Below are positions 32,338-39,876 of a stretch of DNA of 64,000 bases, one piece after another (position 1 is the first letter of the stretch; each line of letters begins with the position of its first letter). The notes below the pieces were generated by a model. It had not been told where the DNA came from, searched no databases, and was given only the letters and a program-made list of their open reading frames with translations. Origin of the DNA: a bacterium (GTDB taxonomy: Bacteria; UBA8248); the NCBI GenBank assembly GCA_965219955.1, contig OZ244799.1:704001-768000 (forward strand), given 5' to 3'. The position numbers were made by a program, and so were the translations under genes.

Positions 32338-32508
32338 ACATGGCGCTGAACCTTGACGCCGCTGCGATTATATCGGCATTATAACCGCCAACCCTGAGTA
32401 CGGGAAATCTCACAGGCTTGTTTCATCGTCATGTGTCGGATGCCCCTTTCGACATCTGAAACCGAGCCGTCAACCACGGCTTCGGCGCACTGGAATCGAG
32501 GGTTTCGA

Positions 32509-33579
32509 ATGGATTTTTCCTTGTTCTACATCCTGTATCGCCCCGAAGACATGACCGAGGTTCAGGTCCATGAGGATATGATCGTAGAGAGCATCCTGGC
32601 GGATGAGTTGGGCTACTCTTGCGTCTGGTACGCCGAGCATCACTTCTCCCGGGTCGGGATGATCCCCGATCCGCTTCTCATCTGCGCCGCAGTCGCGCAA
32701 AAGACGAAAAAAATTCACGTAGGCACGGCCATTTCCATCATGTCGTTCCACGATCCCATCCGCCTGGCCGAGCAGGCGGCCATGGTCGATCTCCTGAGCG
32801 GCGGCAGGCTCGAGCTGGGTATCGGGCGCGGCTCCCAGCCCAAGGAGTTTCAGGGGTTCGGCGCCAAGCCGTCTGAAAGCCGCGAGCGCCTGAAAGAGGG
32901 GCTCCATATCCTCTCCCGCCTTCTGGAAGGGGAGAAGGTGACGTTTGAGGGCCGGCATCATCAGTGCGCGGACGTCGAAATCTTCCCCAAGCCCCTGCAA
33001 AAGCCCAGGCCCCCCATCTGGCTGGCGGGAACGAGCCCCGAGACCTACACCTATGCGGGCGAGAACGGCTTCAAGGTGATGGCGTCTGCCGGCTTTACGG
33101 GTCCGGAAGTCTACAAGCAGAAGTTCGGGCTTTACGAGGACGCCATCCGAAAGTCGGGCGGCGACCCCGCCGGGATCGACAGGCCGCTCGTTCACCACAT
33201 CCATGTATGCGACGCCGAGGATGCGGACGAATGCTTCAACCTCACGGTGGAAGGCGAGGGCGAGTACCTGCGCTACCGGGCGAAGATGAACGAGGTGGAA
33301 ATGCCCGAGGAAGAGGCGAGGCACCTGAAGCGCAACTGGAGTTATGAACTGGACGTCGCCGAGATCGTCAGGGGCGGCGGCATCATCGCCGATCCGGGGG
33401 CCGTGGCCGAAGACATTTGCAGGCTGCGGGATGAGTACGGGGTCAATCACGTCATCCTGGCGCCCTGGCGCGGGCCGGACCACGCTTCGGTGATGCGCTC
33501 GATAGAGAGCTTTGCAAACGACGTCATGCCGCTGGTGAACGCCACCGCGCCCGTCGGCACAGGTGGAAGTCAGACTTGA
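32509..33579 (+). CDS. Luciferase-like (LLM) flavin-dependent monooxygenase
   Basis: WYAEHHF, PIRLAEQAAMVDLLSGGRLELGIGRG, PKPLQKPRPPIW. Confidence 0.93.
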   Translation: MDFSLFYILYRPEDMTEVQVHEDMIVESILADELGYSCVWYAEHHFSRVGMIPDPLLICAAVAQKTKKIHVGTAISIMSFHDPIRLAEQAAMVDLLSGGRLELGIGRGSQPKEFQGFGAKPSESRERLKEGLHILSRLLEGEKVTFEGRHHQCADVEIFPKPLQKPRPPIWLAGTSPETYTYAGENGFKVMASAGFTGPEVYKQKFGLYEDAIRKSGGDPAGIDRPLVHHIHVCDAEDADECFNLTVEGEGEYLRYRAKMNEVEMPEEEARHLKRNWSYELDVAEIVRGGGIIADPGAVAEDICRLRDEYGVNHVILAPWRGPDHASVMRSIESFANDVMPLVNATAPVGTGGSQT

Positions 33580-33626
33580 TGTCTTGATGGTTTCTTTTGG
33601 TCTCAAAATTCAGGAGGCGCTTTGTC

Positions 33627-34607
33627 GTGGGAATCAGTTTTAGTCTTCATTTGGTGCCGGATGACATCCGGGTCGTGGCGGAGCGTTCGAAATACGCCGA
33701 GGACAACGGTTTCGAACAGGTCTGGATAGCGGAGAGCCACCTCACCTGCCGGGATCACAACATCGCGCTCGCCCTGGCGATAGAGAACACCTCGCACGTG
33801 AAAATCGGCCCCGGCGTGACGAATCCGGTGCTGCACGACGACAGCGTGGCGGCGAGCGCCATCGCCACGCTCGATGAACTCTCGGGCGGCCGCGTGCTGT
33901 TCGGCATCGGCTCGGGCGATACGCCCGTCTACACGCTGGGCAAGAAGATGGCCCGGCTCGCCCGGATGCGCGAATCCATCGCGGCCATACGCGCGTTCAC
34001 GCGCGGCGAGACGGTGGAATACGCCGAGGGCGTGAACGTGAACATGTGGTGTGAGCGGAATATCCCCATCTACACCTCCGCCGAAGGCCCCAGGACGCTC
34101 GCCATGTCGGCCGAAGTCGCGGAAGGCGTCATCGTGGGTTCTGGCGTCTACCAGGAGACGGTGGACTGGGTGATGAAGCACCTGAACGAGGGGATGGCGA
34201 ACCGCGATCCCTCCCTCGGCGAGATGGACGTCATATTCGGCGCGGTCGTCTCGGTGGATACCGACAGCGTGCGCGCGCGGGAGAAGGTGCGGGCGCGGGT
34301 GGCGAACCGCGCGCACCATAACTTCCGCATGACGCTCGACTCCGTGCCCGAGCCGTACAGGCCCGAAATCAAGCACCTCCTGGACAACTTCGACGTGAGC
34401 AACTGGCGGGATCCCAAGCACGTGCCCCTCATCACCGACTACATCCTGGACCGCTTCACCATCACGGGAACGCCCGAGGAGTGCGTCGACCGCATCCAGG
34501 AGATCGAGTCCTACGGGGTCAAGAGCATCATGATCGACCCCCCGAACCAGGATTTCGACGAATCTCTCAGAATGTTCACCGAAGAGGTTTTGCCCAGGTG
34601 CGTATGA
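33627..34607 (+). CDS. LLM oxidoreductase of the Mer-like (possibly F420-dependent) group
   Basis: IGPGVTNP, IATLDELSGGRVLFGIGSGD, AEGPRTL, GTPEECV; GTG after GGAGG. Confidence 0.85.
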   Translation: MGISFSLHLVPDDIRVVAERSKYAEDNGFEQVWIAESHLTCRDHNIALALAIENTSHVKIGPGVTNPVLHDDSVAASAIATLDELSGGRVLFGIGSGDTPVYTLGKKMARLARMRESIAAIRAFTRGETVEYAEGVNVNMWCERNIPIYTSAEGPRTLAMSAEVAEGVIVGSGVYQETVDWVMKHLNEGMANRDPSLGEMDVIFGAVVSVDTDSVRAREKVRARVANRAHHNFRMTLDSVPEPYRPEIKHLLDNFDVSNWRDPKHVPLITDYILDRFTITGTPEECVDRIQEIESYGVKSIMIDPPNQDFDESLRMFTEEVLPRCV

Positions 34608-34617
34608 CCGCATCCCG

Positions 34618-34638
34618 GGCGGAATCGACCGCCTTTTT
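34618..34638 (+). terminator. Short intra-operon terminator-like hairpin
   Basis: GGCGG-AATCGA-CCGCC followed by TTTTT. Confidence 0.4.
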
Positions 34639-34655
34639 CATATGAGGAACCCAAC

Positions 34656-35054
34656 ATGGCGCTGATACCCGATTCTCATGCCGGCATTCTCGACACCAAG
34701 GCCCTCCTGTATCTGGGCACCCAGAACAAGGACGGCTCCCCGCAGGTTTCTCCCGTGTGGTTCGGCACCAACGGCGACATCATCGAGGTCAATTCGGCCA
34801 AGGGCCGCCTGAAGGACCTGAACATGCGGGCGCGCCCGCAGGTGTCCATCGCCATCGTCGACCCCGAAAACGCCTACAGGTGGGTGGGGATACAGGGTAC
34901 GGTGGTGGAGATCACCGAAAACGGGGCGGAGGAGCACATCGACGTCCTGGCGAACAAGTACCTGGGGGTGGACAGCTACCCGAACCGCCAGGAGGGGCAG
35001 GTGCGCGTGATCTACCGCATCCGGGCGGACAAGGTGTTCACCATGGGCGCGTAA
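34656..35054 (+). CDS. PPOX-class (split beta-barrel) probable F420-dependent oxidoreductase
   Basis: DGSPQVSPVW, GRLKDLNMRARPQV, HIDVLANKYLG..YP, RVIYRI. Confidence 0.88.
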   Translation: MALIPDSHAGILDTKALLYLGTQNKDGSPQVSPVWFGTNGDIIEVNSAKGRLKDLNMRARPQVSIAIVDPENAYRWVGIQGTVVEITENGAEEHIDVLANKYLGVDSYPNRQEGQVRVIYRIRADKVFTMGA

Positions 35055-35099
35055 GCCGCCCGGCGCGCACGATTTTTGTACGGGACGGAGACCTGAAAG

Positions 35100-36155
35100 A
35101 TGAAATTCTCGCTTTTCTATATTCCTGCTTGTCAGGAGGGAGAAAGCTACAAGCACGAGTTCGATCAGCTGATCGAACAATGCGAGGTGGCCGACGGACT
35201 CGGCTACGACACGGTGTTCCTCGCCGAGCACCACTTCTCCCGCGTGGGCATGTGCCCCGACGCCCTGATGGTCGCGCTCGCCATCGCGCAGCGAACGAAG
35301 AAGATCAGGATCGGCACGGCCATCTGCATCATGCCGTTCCACAACCCGGTGCGTCTGGCGGAGCAGGCCGCCCTGGTCGACGTGCTGAGCGGCGGCCGCC
35401 TGGAGTTGGGCGTCGGCAGAGGCTCCCAGCCCAAGGAGTTCCAGGGCTTCAACATCTCGCCGTCCGAGAGCAGGGAGAAGATGCAGGAGGGACTCGAGGT
35501 GATGACGCGCCTGCTGGAGGGCGAATGCCTCACCTATCACGGGAAGCACTACAGCTGCGTCGACGCGGAGATTTTCCCCAAACCCATCCAGAAGCCGCGC
35601 CCTCCCATCTGGCTGGCCGGCACGAGCCCCGAAACCTACGTCTTCGCGGGCCAGAGAGGGTACAACATCATGGCGTCGGGCACCTTCAAGGGGCCGGACG
35701 TGTATCTCGAGAAAATGGCGCTCTTCCAGGAGACGGTGCGGAACCGCGGCGGCGACCCGAGCGATTATCCCTCCCTCATGGCGCACCACGTCCACGTGTG
35801 CGACGACCCCGAACACGCCTGGCGGCAGATCGAACCCTCCGAATCCTGGTATCTCTCCTACCGCAGCGCGGTGAATTCCATCGAGATGCCGCTGGAGGAG
35901 AAAGAGGCCCTCAAGCGCAACTGGAGCTACGACGTCGACATCCGCCAGGTCATCGAGGGCGGCGGCGTCATCGGTCCGCCCGAGAAGGTGATCGCCGATC
36001 TCAAGCGGCTCCAGAAGGAGTTCCAGGTGAATCACATCATGATCTTCGTGCTGCGCGGCATCGCGCAGGACGAGGCGATTCAGTCGATAGAGCGGTTTGC
36101 GAAAGAGGTGATGCCCGCGTTCGCCGAAGAGCGCGCGGCGAGTTCCAGCGAATAA
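35100..36155 (+). CDS. Luciferase-like (LLM) monooxygenase, paralog of 32509-33579
   Basis: AEHHFSRVGM, GRGSQPKEFQGF, PIWLAGTSPETY and LKRNWSY shared with the paralog. Confidence 0.93.
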   Translation: MKFSLFYIPACQEGESYKHEFDQLIEQCEVADGLGYDTVFLAEHHFSRVGMCPDALMVALAIAQRTKKIRIGTAICIMPFHNPVRLAEQAALVDVLSGGRLELGVGRGSQPKEFQGFNISPSESREKMQEGLEVMTRLLEGECLTYHGKHYSCVDAEIFPKPIQKPRPPIWLAGTSPETYVFAGQRGYNIMASGTFKGPDVYLEKMALFQETVRNRGGDPSDYPSLMAHHVHVCDDPEHAWRQIEPSESWYLSYRSAVNSIEMPLEEKEALKRNWSYDVDIRQVIEGGGVIGPPEKVIADLKRLQKEFQVNHIMIFVLRGIAQDEAIQSIERFAKEVMPAFAEERAASSSE

Positions 36156-36179
36156 CACCGGTATCGAGGAGAACGGAGA

Positions 36180-36779
36180 ATGTGGATATCCCCCTTAAGG
36201 CTGAATGACGCCCAGGAACCCGCGCGCGGGATTCTCGAGGGCATCCGGGCGAAACGAGGCGCGGTTCCCAAGCTGCTGCTCACGATGGCGCGCAGGCCCG
36301 AAGTGCTGAACGGACGCCAGACGATGAACATGGCCGTCCACGGCGGCAATTCGACGCTGGGCCAGAGGCGCGAGGAGCTGATCTCCTACTACGTCGCCAC
36401 CATCGGCGGGTGCTATGGCTGAACGATGAACCATGGCCAGGCTTTCCGTGCTGAAAGCGGCGACGACGTAACGCTGGCCGACGTGGCCACCGTGGTGACG
36501 GACAGGGACAATTCCCCGGCCCTCGACGATGCCGACAAGGCGATGCTCGCCTTCGCCGAAAAACTCACGTTCGACCACTACGCCATGAGCGAGGCGGACC
36601 TGGACGAGTTGCGCGAGGCGGGCTTCTCGGATGAGAACGTGCTGGACATCATCGGCTCCGTCTCGTACCGGAACATGAGCAACCGGCTGAACATCGCGCT
36701 CGGCCTGGACGCCATAGAACCCGAAGGCCCCGACGAGTTGATGGAGGTGGTGCGCTTCTCCCGAACCGCGCGGGCTTGA
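36180..36779 (+). CDS. AhpD/CMD-family peroxidase-related protein, predicted selenoprotein (Sec at codon 81)
   Basis: ORFs 36180-36422 and 36426-36779 are in frame; read-through gives RREELISYYVATIGGCYG-U-TMNHG and an intact 199-aa AhpD-like sequence (AMLAFAEKLT, LREAGFSDE, NMSNRL); GGAG only before 36180. Confidence 0.85.
36423..36461 (+). promoter_or_regulatory. Putative bacterial SECIS element
   Basis: GCTTTC-CGTGCT-GAAAGC hairpin at 36441-36458; loop starts 24 nt after the UGA with G then U at loop positions 2-3. Confidence 0.7.
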
Positions 36780-36899
36780 AATCGTACATCCGTTCGCCGG
36801 CCGGGCAGGTCCGGGCCGGTGATTACCAGGCAAAATAATTGCCATCGTTCATTTGCGGCCCTCTGCGGACGCGATACAAAGCAGAAAGGAACAGTTTCC

Positions 36900-37670
36900 A
36901 TGTCAGACCTCACCATCCGTCCGCTGAACTGCGGCACCATTCACACGGATTACTCCAATATGGTGTATTGGACGAACTTCGGGACGAAACTCGAGATTCC
37001 CTCGTTCATCTACATGATCGAGGGGGCGAAGGACCACGACGGAAACGACGTGAAGGTCGTGGTCGACACCAGTTTCCTGGACCCCGAGCGCGGCGGCGCA
37101 CCCTGGCCCGCCAGCCGGGAACCCGGCCAGGGCGTGCGCGATCAGCTCGAAGGAGCGGGCTGGAAGCCCGAGGAAGTGGACATCCTCATCCTCACGCACC
37201 TCCACTGGGACCATTCGCAGAACTGCGACCTGTTCACCAACGCGATCAAGTACGTCTGGGCGGAGGAGCTTCAATACTCCATGTGCCCGGTGGCGCTGCA
37301 GGCGAAGCCCTACGACGCGCCGATCCACCCCAACACCCGCTGGCCGGTGATCGCCCAGCAGGGCATCATTTTCGAGCCCATCTGGAAGGACAATACCGAG
37401 ATCGTGCCGGGCGTCACCTATTTCCACACGCCGGGCCACACGCCGGGGCACTGCTCGGTCGCCGTGGAGACGCGCGTGGGCACCTACGTCATCGCCGCCG
37501 ACGTCATCCAGATCAACGAAGGCCTCGAGCGCCGTGTTCCCGCCGGCCAGATGTCGAGCATGCGCGACGCGATGGACTCCATCCACAAGTGCATCGAACG
37601 CGCCACGAAGGAGGAATACATCCTGCCCGGGCACGAGATTTCCGTGCTGGAGAAGGAAGTCTATCCATAG
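36900..37670 (+). CDS. Metallo-beta-lactamase fold hydrolase, N-acyl homoserine lactonase family
   Basis: VVDT, THLHWDH, TPGHTPGH, AAD, PGHE. Confidence 0.88.
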   Translation: MSDLTIRPLNCGTIHTDYSNMVYWTNFGTKLEIPSFIYMIEGAKDHDGNDVKVVVDTSFLDPERGGAPWPASREPGQGVRDQLEGAGWKPEEVDILILTHLHWDHSQNCDLFTNAIKYVWAEELQYSMCPVALQAKPYDAPIHPNTRWPVIAQQGIIFEPIWKDNTEIVPGVTYFHTPGHTPGHCSVAVETRVGTYVIAADVIQINEGLERRVPAGQMSSMRDAMDSIHKCIERATKEEYILPGHEISVLEKEVYP

Positions 37671-37723
37671 GGGCGGATAACGCTCGCCGGTATGAGCGGG
37701 TGTCTGCATAAGGAGGATTCACG

Positions 37724-38101
37724 ATGGCGATGAGCGAGCGGGGCAGGGCCTTGTACGAGGAGATGAAGGCGGCGCGGGGGTTCATCTACCCGGCGTACGA
37801 ACTCCTGTGCGAGGTGGACCCGGAGCTTCTGGAGAACTACGAGAACCTGAAGAACCACATCATGAAGAAACAGGGCCCCTTTCACGAAAAATACAAGGAG
37901 CTCTTCATCGCCGTGGCGAGCGCCTCGCGCGACCCCTCCGACACCGAGGGCATCAAGAACCACCTCAAAAAGGCGCTGCAGCTCGGCGCGACCGTCGAGG
38001 AGGCGACCGAAGCGCTCGAGTGCATGCTGCCCCCCTGCGGCATGACGGCGCTCGTGGCCGGCTGCACGCAGCTCAAAGAGGTGATCGACGAGGGGTACTA
38101 G
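37724..38101 (+). CDS. Carboxymuconolactone decarboxylase (CMD) family protein
   Basis: KYKELFIAVA, HLKKALQLGATVEE, PCG. Confidence 0.85.
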   Translation: MAMSERGRALYEEMKAARGFIYPAYELLCEVDPELLENYENLKNHIMKKQGPFHEKYKELFIAVASASRDPSDTEGIKNHLKKALQLGATVEEATEALECMLPPCGMTALVAGCTQLKEVIDEGY

Positions 38102-38123
38102 AAGCAGGACTGAAAGCGGTTCG

Positions 38124-38157
38124 ACCGGGGGAGCCTGAAAACTCCCCCGGTTTTTTT
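38124..38157 (+). terminator. Intrinsic terminator ending the LLM/AhpD operon
   Basis: ACCGGGGGAG/CTCCCCCGGT stem followed by a T run. Confidence 0.9.
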
Positions 38158-38210
38158 GTGTGTGAGGGATGATGGTTCGAACATCGCTTCCTGCTGGTGC
38201 TGGAATTCTT

Positions 38211-38742
38211 TTCACTCCCCCCTTGAGGGGTCTGTTGAAAAAGTCCTGTCCGACCCTCGAGATTGTTCGCCGTAGGGACAGGCCTCCGTGCCTGTCCTGA
38301 CGAAGGACAACCACGAAGAGCAGGACAGGCACGGAGGCCTGTCCCTACAAAACCATCACGTCTGCGCCGCATGAACCTCCTTGCCGCCGATCCCGCATCA
38401 GGCTTTTTCAACAACCCCTTTGAGGGTCTGTTGAAAAAGTCCTCACATCTCTCTCGTCCTGAGTAGCGGCCCCTCGACTTCGCTCGGGGCAGGCTTTGCC
38501 CCCCATCTTCCTCATCCTGAGTAGCCGCCGAAGGCGGCGTATCGAAGGTCAATCGCGCCCAATGAGGAAGCGATTGCTCCGCATGTCGGAAGACGCCTTC
38601 CATCCTTCGATACGGCGCTTACGCGCCTACTCAGGATGAGGTTTTATGGCCACCTGCGCGGTAGGAAGGAGGGCCGCCGCGTAATCCCAATATGACCCGC
38701 TCCCGAATCAGGCTTCTTCAACAACCCCTCAAGGGGGAGTGG
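38211..38742. mobile_element. Two tandem TIR elements inside a CACTCCCCCCTTGAG/TCAAGGGGGAGTG palindrome
   Basis: 38228-38418 carries a GTAG REP; 38424-38728 carries a CCTCATCCTGAGTA REP; separated by 5 nt (TTTGA). Confidence 0.78.
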
Positions 38743-38950
38743 ATTTCCCTGCTCCCTGGATGGCAAAGCCCTCAAGCGGGGAGGAATTGAACCTCTTGCG
38801 AACCTGCAGGGGGACCGGTCGCGTCTCCCTGCCACTTCCGTGGTTGTCCCTCAACAGGACAGGCGCGGGGGCCTGTCCCTGCCTCCGGCTACTCCAGGGT
38901 GAAAATCAATTTCCACCATGCTTTTCCCCCGGGAGTTGCGCATTCGCGAT

Positions 38951-38989: not shown

Positions 38990-39430
38990 ATGCGGCTGAC
39001 CGTTCAGACAGACTATGCCCTCAGGATGCTGATGCATCTGGCCTGCCGCGCCGGTGCCCTGGTGACGATCCACGAGATCGCCGAGCGGTACGGGATCTCG
39101 AAAAACCACCTGGTGAAGGTCGCGCACGGGCTGGGCCGCGCGGGGTTCATTGAAACGCTCCGCGGGCGAAGCGGCGGCCTCAGGCTCGCCAGGCCGGCGG
39201 AGGAAATCCCCGTCGGGACGGTGGCGAGGCACACCGAACAAAACAGCGCCCTCGTCGAGTGTTTTCCGGGCGGAAGCGGGGGGTGCCTGGTGATGCCGCA
39301 CTGCAAACTGAAGGGCGTTCTGGCCGAAGCGCAGGAAGCCTTTTTCGCCGTTCTGGATCGCTATACCGTCCACGATCTGGTGAAACGCAATCCGGCGCTT
39401 CTCGAATTGCTTGCAGGAGACGGCGCATGA
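38990..39430 (+). CDS. nsrR: Rrf2 family NO-sensing repressor
   Basis: MRLTVQTDYALR, ISKNHLVKV, RGRSGG, three cysteines (VECF...GCL.MPHC). Confidence 0.9.
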   Translation: MRLTVQTDYALRMLMHLACRAGALVTIHEIAERYGISKNHLVKVAHGLGRAGFIETLRGRSGGLRLARPAEEIPVGTVARHTEQNSALVECFPGGSGGCLVMPHCKLKGVLAEAQEAFFAVLDRYTVHDLVKRNPALLELLAGDGA

Positions 39431-39876
39431 ACACCACGCATCTCAAAATCGTGGGAGAACGCCGGGCCGAGGTCCAGGCGAAAGCCGCCGCGATGGGGAT
39501 CGACGAGGCTTACGTCTCCGAACTCGTGAATGCCTTCTACAGCCGCGTCCGTGAAGACCGGCTGCTCGGGCCGATATTCGATGACGCCATCCGCGACAAC
39601 TGGGGGCATCACCTCGAGAAGATGAAGGATTTCTGGGCGACGGTGGCCTTGAACGCCGGGCGCTACTCGGGGGAGCCGATTCAGGCCCACAAGAAACTCG
39701 TGGAGGTCCAGCCGTGGCATTTCGACGTCTGGCTGGAAATGTTCGAAGAAACCTTGAAAGACACGGCGCCGACGCCGGAGGCGGCCGTCTATTTCATGGA
39801 GTACGCCGCGCAAATCGCCAAGGGGCTTCGAATCGCCATGTACGGCGCGGGCGGTTCCGGGCATCCGGTGGCGTGA
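39427..39876 (+). CDS. Group III truncated haemoglobin
   Basis: LVNAFYSRVRED.LLGPIF, WGHHLEKMKDFW, YSGEP..AH, HFDVWL.MF. Confidence 0.92.
   Translation: MNTTHLKIVGERRAEVQAKAAAMGIDEAYVSELVNAFYSRVREDRLLGPIFDDAIRDNWGHHLEKMKDFWATVALNAGRYSGEPIQAHKKLVEVQPWHFDVWLEMFEETLKDTAPTPEAAVYFMEYAAQIAKGLRIAMYGAGGSGHPVA

Follow-up and report, generated by a model that had tools for sequence, protein, structure and literature searches.

Positions 36180-36779 of the 64,000-nt stretch of DNA analysed here (the window) most probably hold one gene, encoding an AhpD-like thiol-selenol oxidoreductase in which UGA81 is decoded as selenocysteine (Sec); from the sequence evidence we put the probability of this reading at roughly 0.93. 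An earlier note on this DNA had proposed a single 199-aa selenoenzyme at this place, a proposal that is now supported by the conservation of the TGA, by a family HMM match that runs across it and by the Sec machinery of the genome. The window gene is a further member of the published AhpD-like CxxU family (TIGR01926/COG2128/YciW), and the result counts as an annotation rescue and a confirmation; it is not a discovery.

Reading frame, family and fold across the TGA

On inspection of the sequence we found an 80-aa ORF at 36180-36422 on the + strand, terminated by the TGA at 36420-36422, and a 117-aa ORF at 36426-36779, also on the + strand and in a frame identical to that of the first; the sole codon between the two is ACG (Thr, 36423-36425), and the peptide across the junction reads C-Y-G-[TGA]-T-M-N-H. 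Two same-frame ORFs parted by a TGA and one Thr codon are what the earlier note had described, and its remark that the second ORF has no clear ribosome-binding site holds as well: by eye, GAGGAG is found only before the first ATG, and no comparable Shine-Dalgarno site lies upstream of the ATG at 36426. The gene has the following features.

36166-36171, + strand: Shine-Dalgarno-like GAGGAG, 8 nt upstream of the first ATG (read from the sequence)
36180-36779, + strand: predicted AhpD-like / peroxidase-related selenoprotein CDS, 199 codons plus a terminal TGA (TIGR01926, Pfam CMD, AlphaFold2, dN/dS)
36375-36377, + strand: Glu66 codon, 12 residues before Cys78; candidate proton-relay residue (at least 90% conserved in the 19-sequence alignment A2; aligns with a Glu of 6k40)
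36411-36413, + strand: Cys78 codon TGC, position 1 of C-x-x-U; likely resolving thiol, by analogy (A2 column invariant)
36420-36422, + strand: in-frame TGA, putative selenocysteine codon 81 (26/26 orthologues, Cys alignment, Sec machinery)
36432-36434, + strand: His85 codon, four residues after Sec81 (A2 column invariant; aligned to a His of 6k40, 3c1l and 2pfx)

The read-through product, with the active-site motif E66 ... C78-x-x-U81-x3-H85, matched the NCBIfam 'peroxidase-related enzyme' model TIGR01926 with 112.2 bits (cut-off 81.8) over residues 2-176, a match that spans the TGA. The match to Pfam CMD (PF02627; residues 40-121) likewise spans the TGA; at 25.3 bits against a gathering threshold of 23 it is marginal, holds at the domain level only and says nothing on decarboxylase activity. 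AlphaFold2, run with the 19-sequence alignment, predicted the read-through product to be a single all-helical domain (pLDDT 93.3, pTM 0.88) with residue 81 at the N-terminus of a helix formed by residues 79-92, and the model matched the AhpD-like crystal structures 2prr, 3c1l, 6k40 and 2oyo with TM scores of about 0.72-0.78 over ~190 columns.

The earlier note had placed the TGA at the second Cys of a CxxC motif, and the alignments bear this out. A2 shows no variation in the columns of C78, position 81 and H85, and the three best PDB matches (6k40, 3c1l and 2pfx) each have a CxxC-x3-H aligned to C78, U81 and H85 and a Glu aligned to E66. Five Cys homologues, drawn from related genomes and, in one case, from this genome, have CSFC, CEYC, CEFC or CHFC as the aligned motif; a check for a non-Cys residue such as Trp at the TGA position of homologues found Cys, not Trp. 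In addition, more distant homologues have a TGA of their own at the motif (CHYU, CRYU, CVYU and CKYU). By analogy with Mycobacterium tuberculosis AhpD, with which the E...CxxC...H spacing of 12, 2 and 3 residues agrees, Glu66 may have a catalytic role.

Conservation of the TGA and the decoding machinery

A search of 60 related genomes identified orthologues (59-98% protein identity) in 21 of 22 further congeneric genomes and also in two other genera, with exactly one in-frame TGA in every orthologue found. We translated 26 of these loci, i.e., that of this genome and those of 25 other genomes, from three genera in all, and codon 81 is TGA in each of them, within a shared ...C-Y-G-U-T-x-N-H-G...; a check for relatives with TAA or TAG at this codon found neither in the 26 orthologous loci. 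Judged from these sequences, the conservation of the TGA exceeds chance. The dN/dS values of the window gene against five orthologues were 0.03-0.20 for the part N-terminal to the TGA and 0.14-0.21 for the C-terminal part, values that indicate purifying selection in this frame before and after the TGA alike.

The genome has the complete machinery for Sec insertion, with tRNA-Sec, SelA, SelB and SelD all scoring above curated cut-offs: a check for selA, selB, selC and selD found a tRNA-Sec with anticodon TCA (75.9 bits), selA (578 bits) adjoining selB (390 bits), and a selD (332.7 bits) whose own reading frame contains a TGA, at the usual G-G-U-G site. Of the 12 TIGR01926 matches of this genome, 10 have an in-frame TGA. 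By motif inspection, the CMD/AhpD superfamily is represented here by 12 CxxU genes and one UxxU gene; besides the window gene, twelve further CMD/AhpD genes have a TGA at this point of the motif. The catalytic position is thus encoded by TGA in at least 13 CMD/AhpD genes here, from which the selenium dependence of peroxide and redox defence would be both large and under-annotated. The UxxU gene is a sister paralogue located outside the window (G000:C1:4094842-4095441), with ~48% identity to the window gene and a TIGR01926 score of 86.9 bits; its motif is U-Y-G-U, specified by two TGAs three codons (9 nt) apart, such that the position of Cys78 in the window gene is also a TGA in the sister. We verified UxxU in 23 of the 25 sister loci examined.

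The earlier expectation that gene callers would split the gene is borne out by a public protein collection, in which the exact 80-aa and 117-aa pieces each have an entry of their own and fall into clusters of 57 and 93 members. Of the two, one is labelled 'hypothetical protein [Nitrospinota bacterium]', the only name attached to a relative, and the relatives originate from marine, sponge and coral metagenomes. Because the gene is stored only as two 'hypothetical' fragments, studies of this lineage that rely on annotation cannot see the active site of this conserved redox enzyme. The TGA is bridged by two contigs from metatranscriptome libraries of two studies (X15 record 2, 36175-36493, and X16 record 7, 36312-36498). 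A check for TGC, TGT or TGG in reads found that these contigs show no difference at codon 81 (36420-36422) among the differences listed (40 of 84). The junction is bridged in these two RNA-library runs only; X17 and X18 have no coverage there, from which nothing follows, and contigs from RNA libraries cannot prove transcription or its level.

That the TGA is a true stop, so that the locus consists of two distinct small genes or else is a pseudogene with a nonsense mutation, we consider extremely improbable. Such a reading would agree with the two separate proteins, in their clusters of 57 and 93, given by gene callers and with the ATG that begins the second ORF in this genome; however, the TGA is kept in all 26 orthologues although dS among them reaches 0.4-0.6 and beyond, and a nonsense lesion is not expected to persist with both halves at dN/dS values of 0.03-0.21. 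The would-be start codon of the second ORF is ATG in 21 of the 26 loci and GTG in 1, but in the other 4 it is a non-start codon (ATA, CTT, CTA or CTC), and a Shine-Dalgarno site is likewise missing; moreover, the TGA falls inside the family HMM match, the Pfam domain and the predicted fold, and an 80-residue piece would stop inside the active-site motif. Read-through of the UGA as a standard amino acid (Cys, Trp or Gly), whether by near-cognate decoding or by a changed code, is highly improbable too. Cys is the residue that non-Sec homologues have at this place, and insertion of Sec and of Cys at a UGA are indistinguishable by sequence analysis, but the genome encodes RF2 (502 bits) and the window gene itself ends in TGA, from which it follows that TGA is used here without genome-wide reassignment. 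A complete and evidently used Sec system, including a selD with its own in-frame TGA, also speaks against a standard amino acid, as do the absence of any drift to TGC or TGT among the 26 orthologues and an RNA-level constraint immediately 3' of the TGA, to which we now turn in support of the Sec reading.

Candidate SECIS elements 3' of the TGA

Over the whole gene, the synonymous-difference fraction across 26 distinct CDS is 0.33, and it falls to its minimum in codons 85-96, just 3' of the TGA. This minimum makes an RNA element overlapping the CDS likely, and the SECIS likely lies within 36432-36467, where two mutually exclusive hairpins, here called H1 and H2, are candidates.

36432-36467, + strand: suppressed synonymous change in codons 85-96 (synonymous-difference fraction 0.108-0.123)
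36441-36446 / 36453-36458, + strand: hairpin H2, SECIS candidate, with a perfect 6-bp stem and a 6-nt loop CGUGCU at 36447-36452
36432-36436 / 36446-36450, + strand: hairpin H1, alternative SECIS candidate, with a 5-bp stem CAUGG/CCGUG that includes one G-U pair and a 9-nt loop

H2 is the hairpin that the earlier note had put forward as the SECIS. It has an energy of -6.7 kcal/mol and a distance of 24 nt from the UGA to the loop, and its pairing is kept in 95.8% of 96 cells across 16 distinct sequences, with one compensatory change (G-C to A-U) in a single genus. H1, whose stem begins at the His85 codon, 9 nt past the UGA, has an energy of -3.0 kcal/mol in this genome and is paired in 80 of 80 cells across the same number of distinct sequences, with no compensatory change. 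The hairpin of the earlier note is real and conserved and a plausible candidate for the SECIS, but H1 is conserved to the same degree.

In bSECISearch a bacterial SECIS has 16-37 nt between UGA and loop and a G in the apical loop. Our hairpin rule required an uninterrupted stem of six or more base pairs, a 3-14 nt loop starting 16-37 nt after the TGA and a G in loop positions 1-2, and 3302 of 60000 random TGA triplets of this genome (5.5%) conformed to it; the H2 hairpin by itself is within chance expectation. The local MFE is unremarkable too, that of 36414-36480 having a z-score of -0.93 with 34 of 200 shuffles folding at least as well. An Rfam scan of 36100-36900 with E-values up to 10 returned no SECIS family and two chance-level matches, HIV-1_DIS and sR42; RNAalifold with the 16 distinct orthologue sequences returned neither H1 nor H2 and gave two weak helices without covariation; and ensemble folding over 63 nt showed neither H1 nor H2 to be dominant in most orthologues. 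An outer stem, GGCCAG/CUGGCC, present in the single-sequence MFE structure, was dropped, as inspection of the alignment by eye showed that genera g5 and g8 do not conserve it.

A much clearer element, a 5-8 bp stem with a GGUC tetraloop that starts at nt 22 after the UGA, is found in six paralogues encoded by this genome. The window gene differs from these six in having no GGUC tetraloop, and both H1 and H2 are unlike their SECIS type.

A reading in which the gene is a selenoprotein but H1 is the functional SECIS, H2 being a competing fold or a side effect of codon choice, is one to which we give slightly less than even odds. Hairpins of the H1 type, with 6-9 bp stems from the His codon and loops of GUC, GUU or GGC, are the strongest local hairpins both in the UxxU sister clade and in six remote CxxU homologues with different peptides. 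None of the 26 orthologues varies at the synonymous sites of UUCCGUG, the 3' arm of H1, and the same holds for 22 of the 23 UxxU genes; in genus g5 H1 is lengthened to 7 bp as H2 is shortened to 4 bp, observations to which the unbroken pairing of H1 in all cells adds. Set against this, H1 is weak in this genome and genus, where it has a short stem with a G-U pair, a 9-nt loop, less than half the energy of H2 and a pair probability of ~0; in addition, the only compensatory change seen belongs to H2, and H1 is without covariation.

Whichever hairpin acts, the parts present would allow the following course for the preferred reading of UGA81 as Sec. SelB with Sec-tRNA(Sec) would read UGA81 as selenocysteine, directed by an mRNA stem-loop in codons 85-96, either H2 (36441-36458) or the overlapping H1 (36432-36450). 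By comparison with the family, Sec81 at its helix N-terminus would stand in for the second, nucleophilic Cys of the AhpD CxxC, and its selenolate would attack either a peroxide or a partner protein in its oxidised form; Cys78 would then resolve the intermediate as a selenylsulfide, with His85 and Glu66 relaying protons, and a thiol or lipoyl donor would re-reduce the Cys78/Sec81 pair.

For the UxxU sister paralogue, by the same sequence-based reasoning, the product may form a diselenide, as opposed to the selenylsulfide of the CxxU window gene. The CxxU and UxxU clades are both without a GGUC-tetraloop SECIS and have in common the constrained UUCCGUG, which fits either of the exclusive hairpins. 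Taking these together we tentatively propose, at odds of perhaps one in three, that the two form a conserved CxxU/UxxU AhpD-fold pair in which one hairpin would serve both UGAs of the sister and a second, or switching, SECIS type would be read by the same SelB.

Known relatives and gene neighbourhood

The earlier note was correct that AhpD-like CxxU selenoproteins are known as a class, which has been on record since 2005. An AhpD-like CxxU family (COG2128) was then described as new from the Sargasso Sea, with 27 sequences (PMC1088965); AhpD-like 1 was among the most abundant selenoprotein families in GOS 2008, with 299 sequences (PMC2398784); the family is listed in a table of a 2026 review (PMC13188914); and BSepDB (PMC13326102) has an AhpD-like family page, with Nitrospinota-labelled organisms among those richest in selenoprotein genes. 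The family and the window gene share the same HMM, a CxxU with Sec at the second Cys and, as a candidate SECIS in the window gene, an in-CDS hairpin 3' of the UGA, and the relatives likewise come from marine and host-associated metagenomes; nothing essential differs in the window gene.

The UxxU sister paralogue is more unusual than the window gene. The review tables consulted list TIGR01926 as 'CxxU, 1 Sec', and UxxU is recorded in the tables covered for thioredoxin-fold, metal-binding and FmdB families; a UxxU AhpD-like form is absent from these tables, and the supplements of the selenoproteome papers may list it or the window gene. The pairing of 'diselenide' with 'AhpD' in this sense was not found in the portion of the literature searched.

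Among characterised proteins, the nearest relative is DR1765 of Deinococcus radiodurans (PDB 6k40), the best sequence match with a solved structure (E-value 5.8e-19, residues 11-176), which has ~30% identity to the window protein and a TM score of about 0.77-0.82 against its model. DR1765 shares the aligned Glu, CxxC and His, and differs in that its second motif position is Cys instead of Sec. According to a secondary account, a DR1765 mutant is sensitive to H2O2 and its complementation requires the cysteines of the CxxC (Zhao et al. 2020, per PMC8945050). Canonical M. tuberculosis AhpD (TIGR00777; PDB 1gu9/1lw1) has the CMD/AhpD helical fold class in common with the window protein; membership of canonical AhpD itself was rejected, the TIGR00777 score being 12.9 bits against a cut-off of 191.95 and the Foldseek match to 1gu9 having an E-value of 0.31 and a TM score of 0.46, and a lipoamide/AhpC partnership is consequently not implied. 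Bmp8, a debrominase of the CMD fold that acts as a thiol-dependent reductive dehalogenase (PDB 6ohj/6ohi), is a full-length Foldseek match (E-value 1.4e-6, TM 0.69-0.72) with 17-18% identity and no counterpart among the PDB sequence matches listed; the match shows that the fold can support reductive reactions besides that on peroxides.

A minor peculiarity of the window gene is its place in a conserved block with a luciferase-like monooxygenase and a metallo-beta-lactamase-fold protein, the neighbours being as follows.

34656-35054, + strand: PNPOx-like flavin/deazaflavin-binding protein, upstream (Pfam PF01243, E-value 2.8e-12)
35100-36155, + strand: luciferase-like monooxygenase, 24 nt upstream of the selenoprotein gene (Pfam PF00296, E-value 8.8e-65)
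36900-37670, + strand: metallo-beta-lactamase-fold protein, downstream (Pfam PF00753, E-value 4.5e-16)
37724-38101, + strand: small CMD-domain protein (125 aa) without a TGA, downstream (Pfam PF02627, E-value 3.2e-9)
38123-38152, + strand: terminator-like hairpin and T-run after the five-gene block (weak)

A promoter scan of 34500-38300 found no sigma-70-like promoter, and the three terminator-like sites in that interval equal the shuffle expectation; for these reasons the operon boundaries are only suggestive. The metallo-beta-lactamase-fold protein gave weak lactonase-like matches, with scores far below the cut-offs of the NCBIfam lactonase models. The luciferase-like monooxygenase gene and the metallo-beta-lactamase-fold gene each adjoin the selenoprotein gene in 25 of the 25 other orthologous loci, and the small CMD gene is present in 24 of these, the 25th locus ending early. 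We speculate that this conserved block hints at a role for the selenoprotein beside the flavin monooxygenase, e.g., in the removal of hydroperoxides.

CMD/AhpD selenoprotein genes across the genome

Searching the whole genome (G000), we found genes for selenoproteins of the CMD/AhpD superfamily to be strongly expanded, with 12 of CxxU type and one of UxxU type, all of which carry TGA at the position of the second motif cysteine. In six of these genes a stem of 5–8 bp is capped by a GGUC tetraloop that begins exactly 22 nt past the UGA, and this hairpin is a clean in-genome SECIS consensus. The selenophosphate synthetase gene lies outside the window:

C1:2942487-2943449, minus strand, selD, whose G-G-U-G-S-K site includes an in-frame TGA

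Downstream of this TGA comes a 7-bp hairpin whose loop is GGA. Selenophosphate synthetase is therefore also a selenoprotein.

A UxxU sister paralogue and two orthologues

The UxxU gene is a sister paralogue of the window gene (~48% identity) and is likewise located outside the window:

C1:4094842-4095441 (positions 8-607 of locus L021), minus strand, UxxU paralogue, 200 codons

It contains two in-frame TGAs, three codons apart, so that its motif reads U-Y-G-U against the C-Y-G-U of the window gene, and both UGAs would have to be served by a single hairpin with a CACGGG/UCCGUG stem. The paralogue passes the TIGR01926 peroxidase-related enzyme model (86.9 bits; cut-off 81.8), and the UxxU motif was present at 23 of the 25 loci examined, spread over three genera; in the portions of the review literature and of the papers reached by our searches, we found no UxxU form of this AhpD-like family.

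The window gene itself has two orthologues in the related genome G014, at C3:31036-31632 (96% identity) and C1:3328474-3329070 (94% identity), and each keeps the in-frame TGA. Because the stated contamination of the G014 assembly is 7%, these paired copies may represent a strain mixture rather than a duplication.

Genes flanking the selenoprotein gene

Past the terminator-like site at 38123-38152, neither strand has a convincing long reading frame in the ORF list over some 800 bp (38150-38900). Downstream of the cluster are two consecutive genes that may form a redox or NO-sensing pair:

38990-39430, Rrf2-family regulator
39427-39876, bacterial-globin-like protein

Directly upstream of the selenoprotein gene is a row of three luciferase-like monooxygenase genes, with a PNPOx-like gene between the second and third:

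32431-33579, luciferase-like monooxygenase, first
33597-34607, luciferase-like monooxygenase, second
34656-35054, PNPOx-like protein
35100-36155, luciferase-like monooxygenase, third

The composition of this row points to a cluster for oxidations that depend on flavin or F420.
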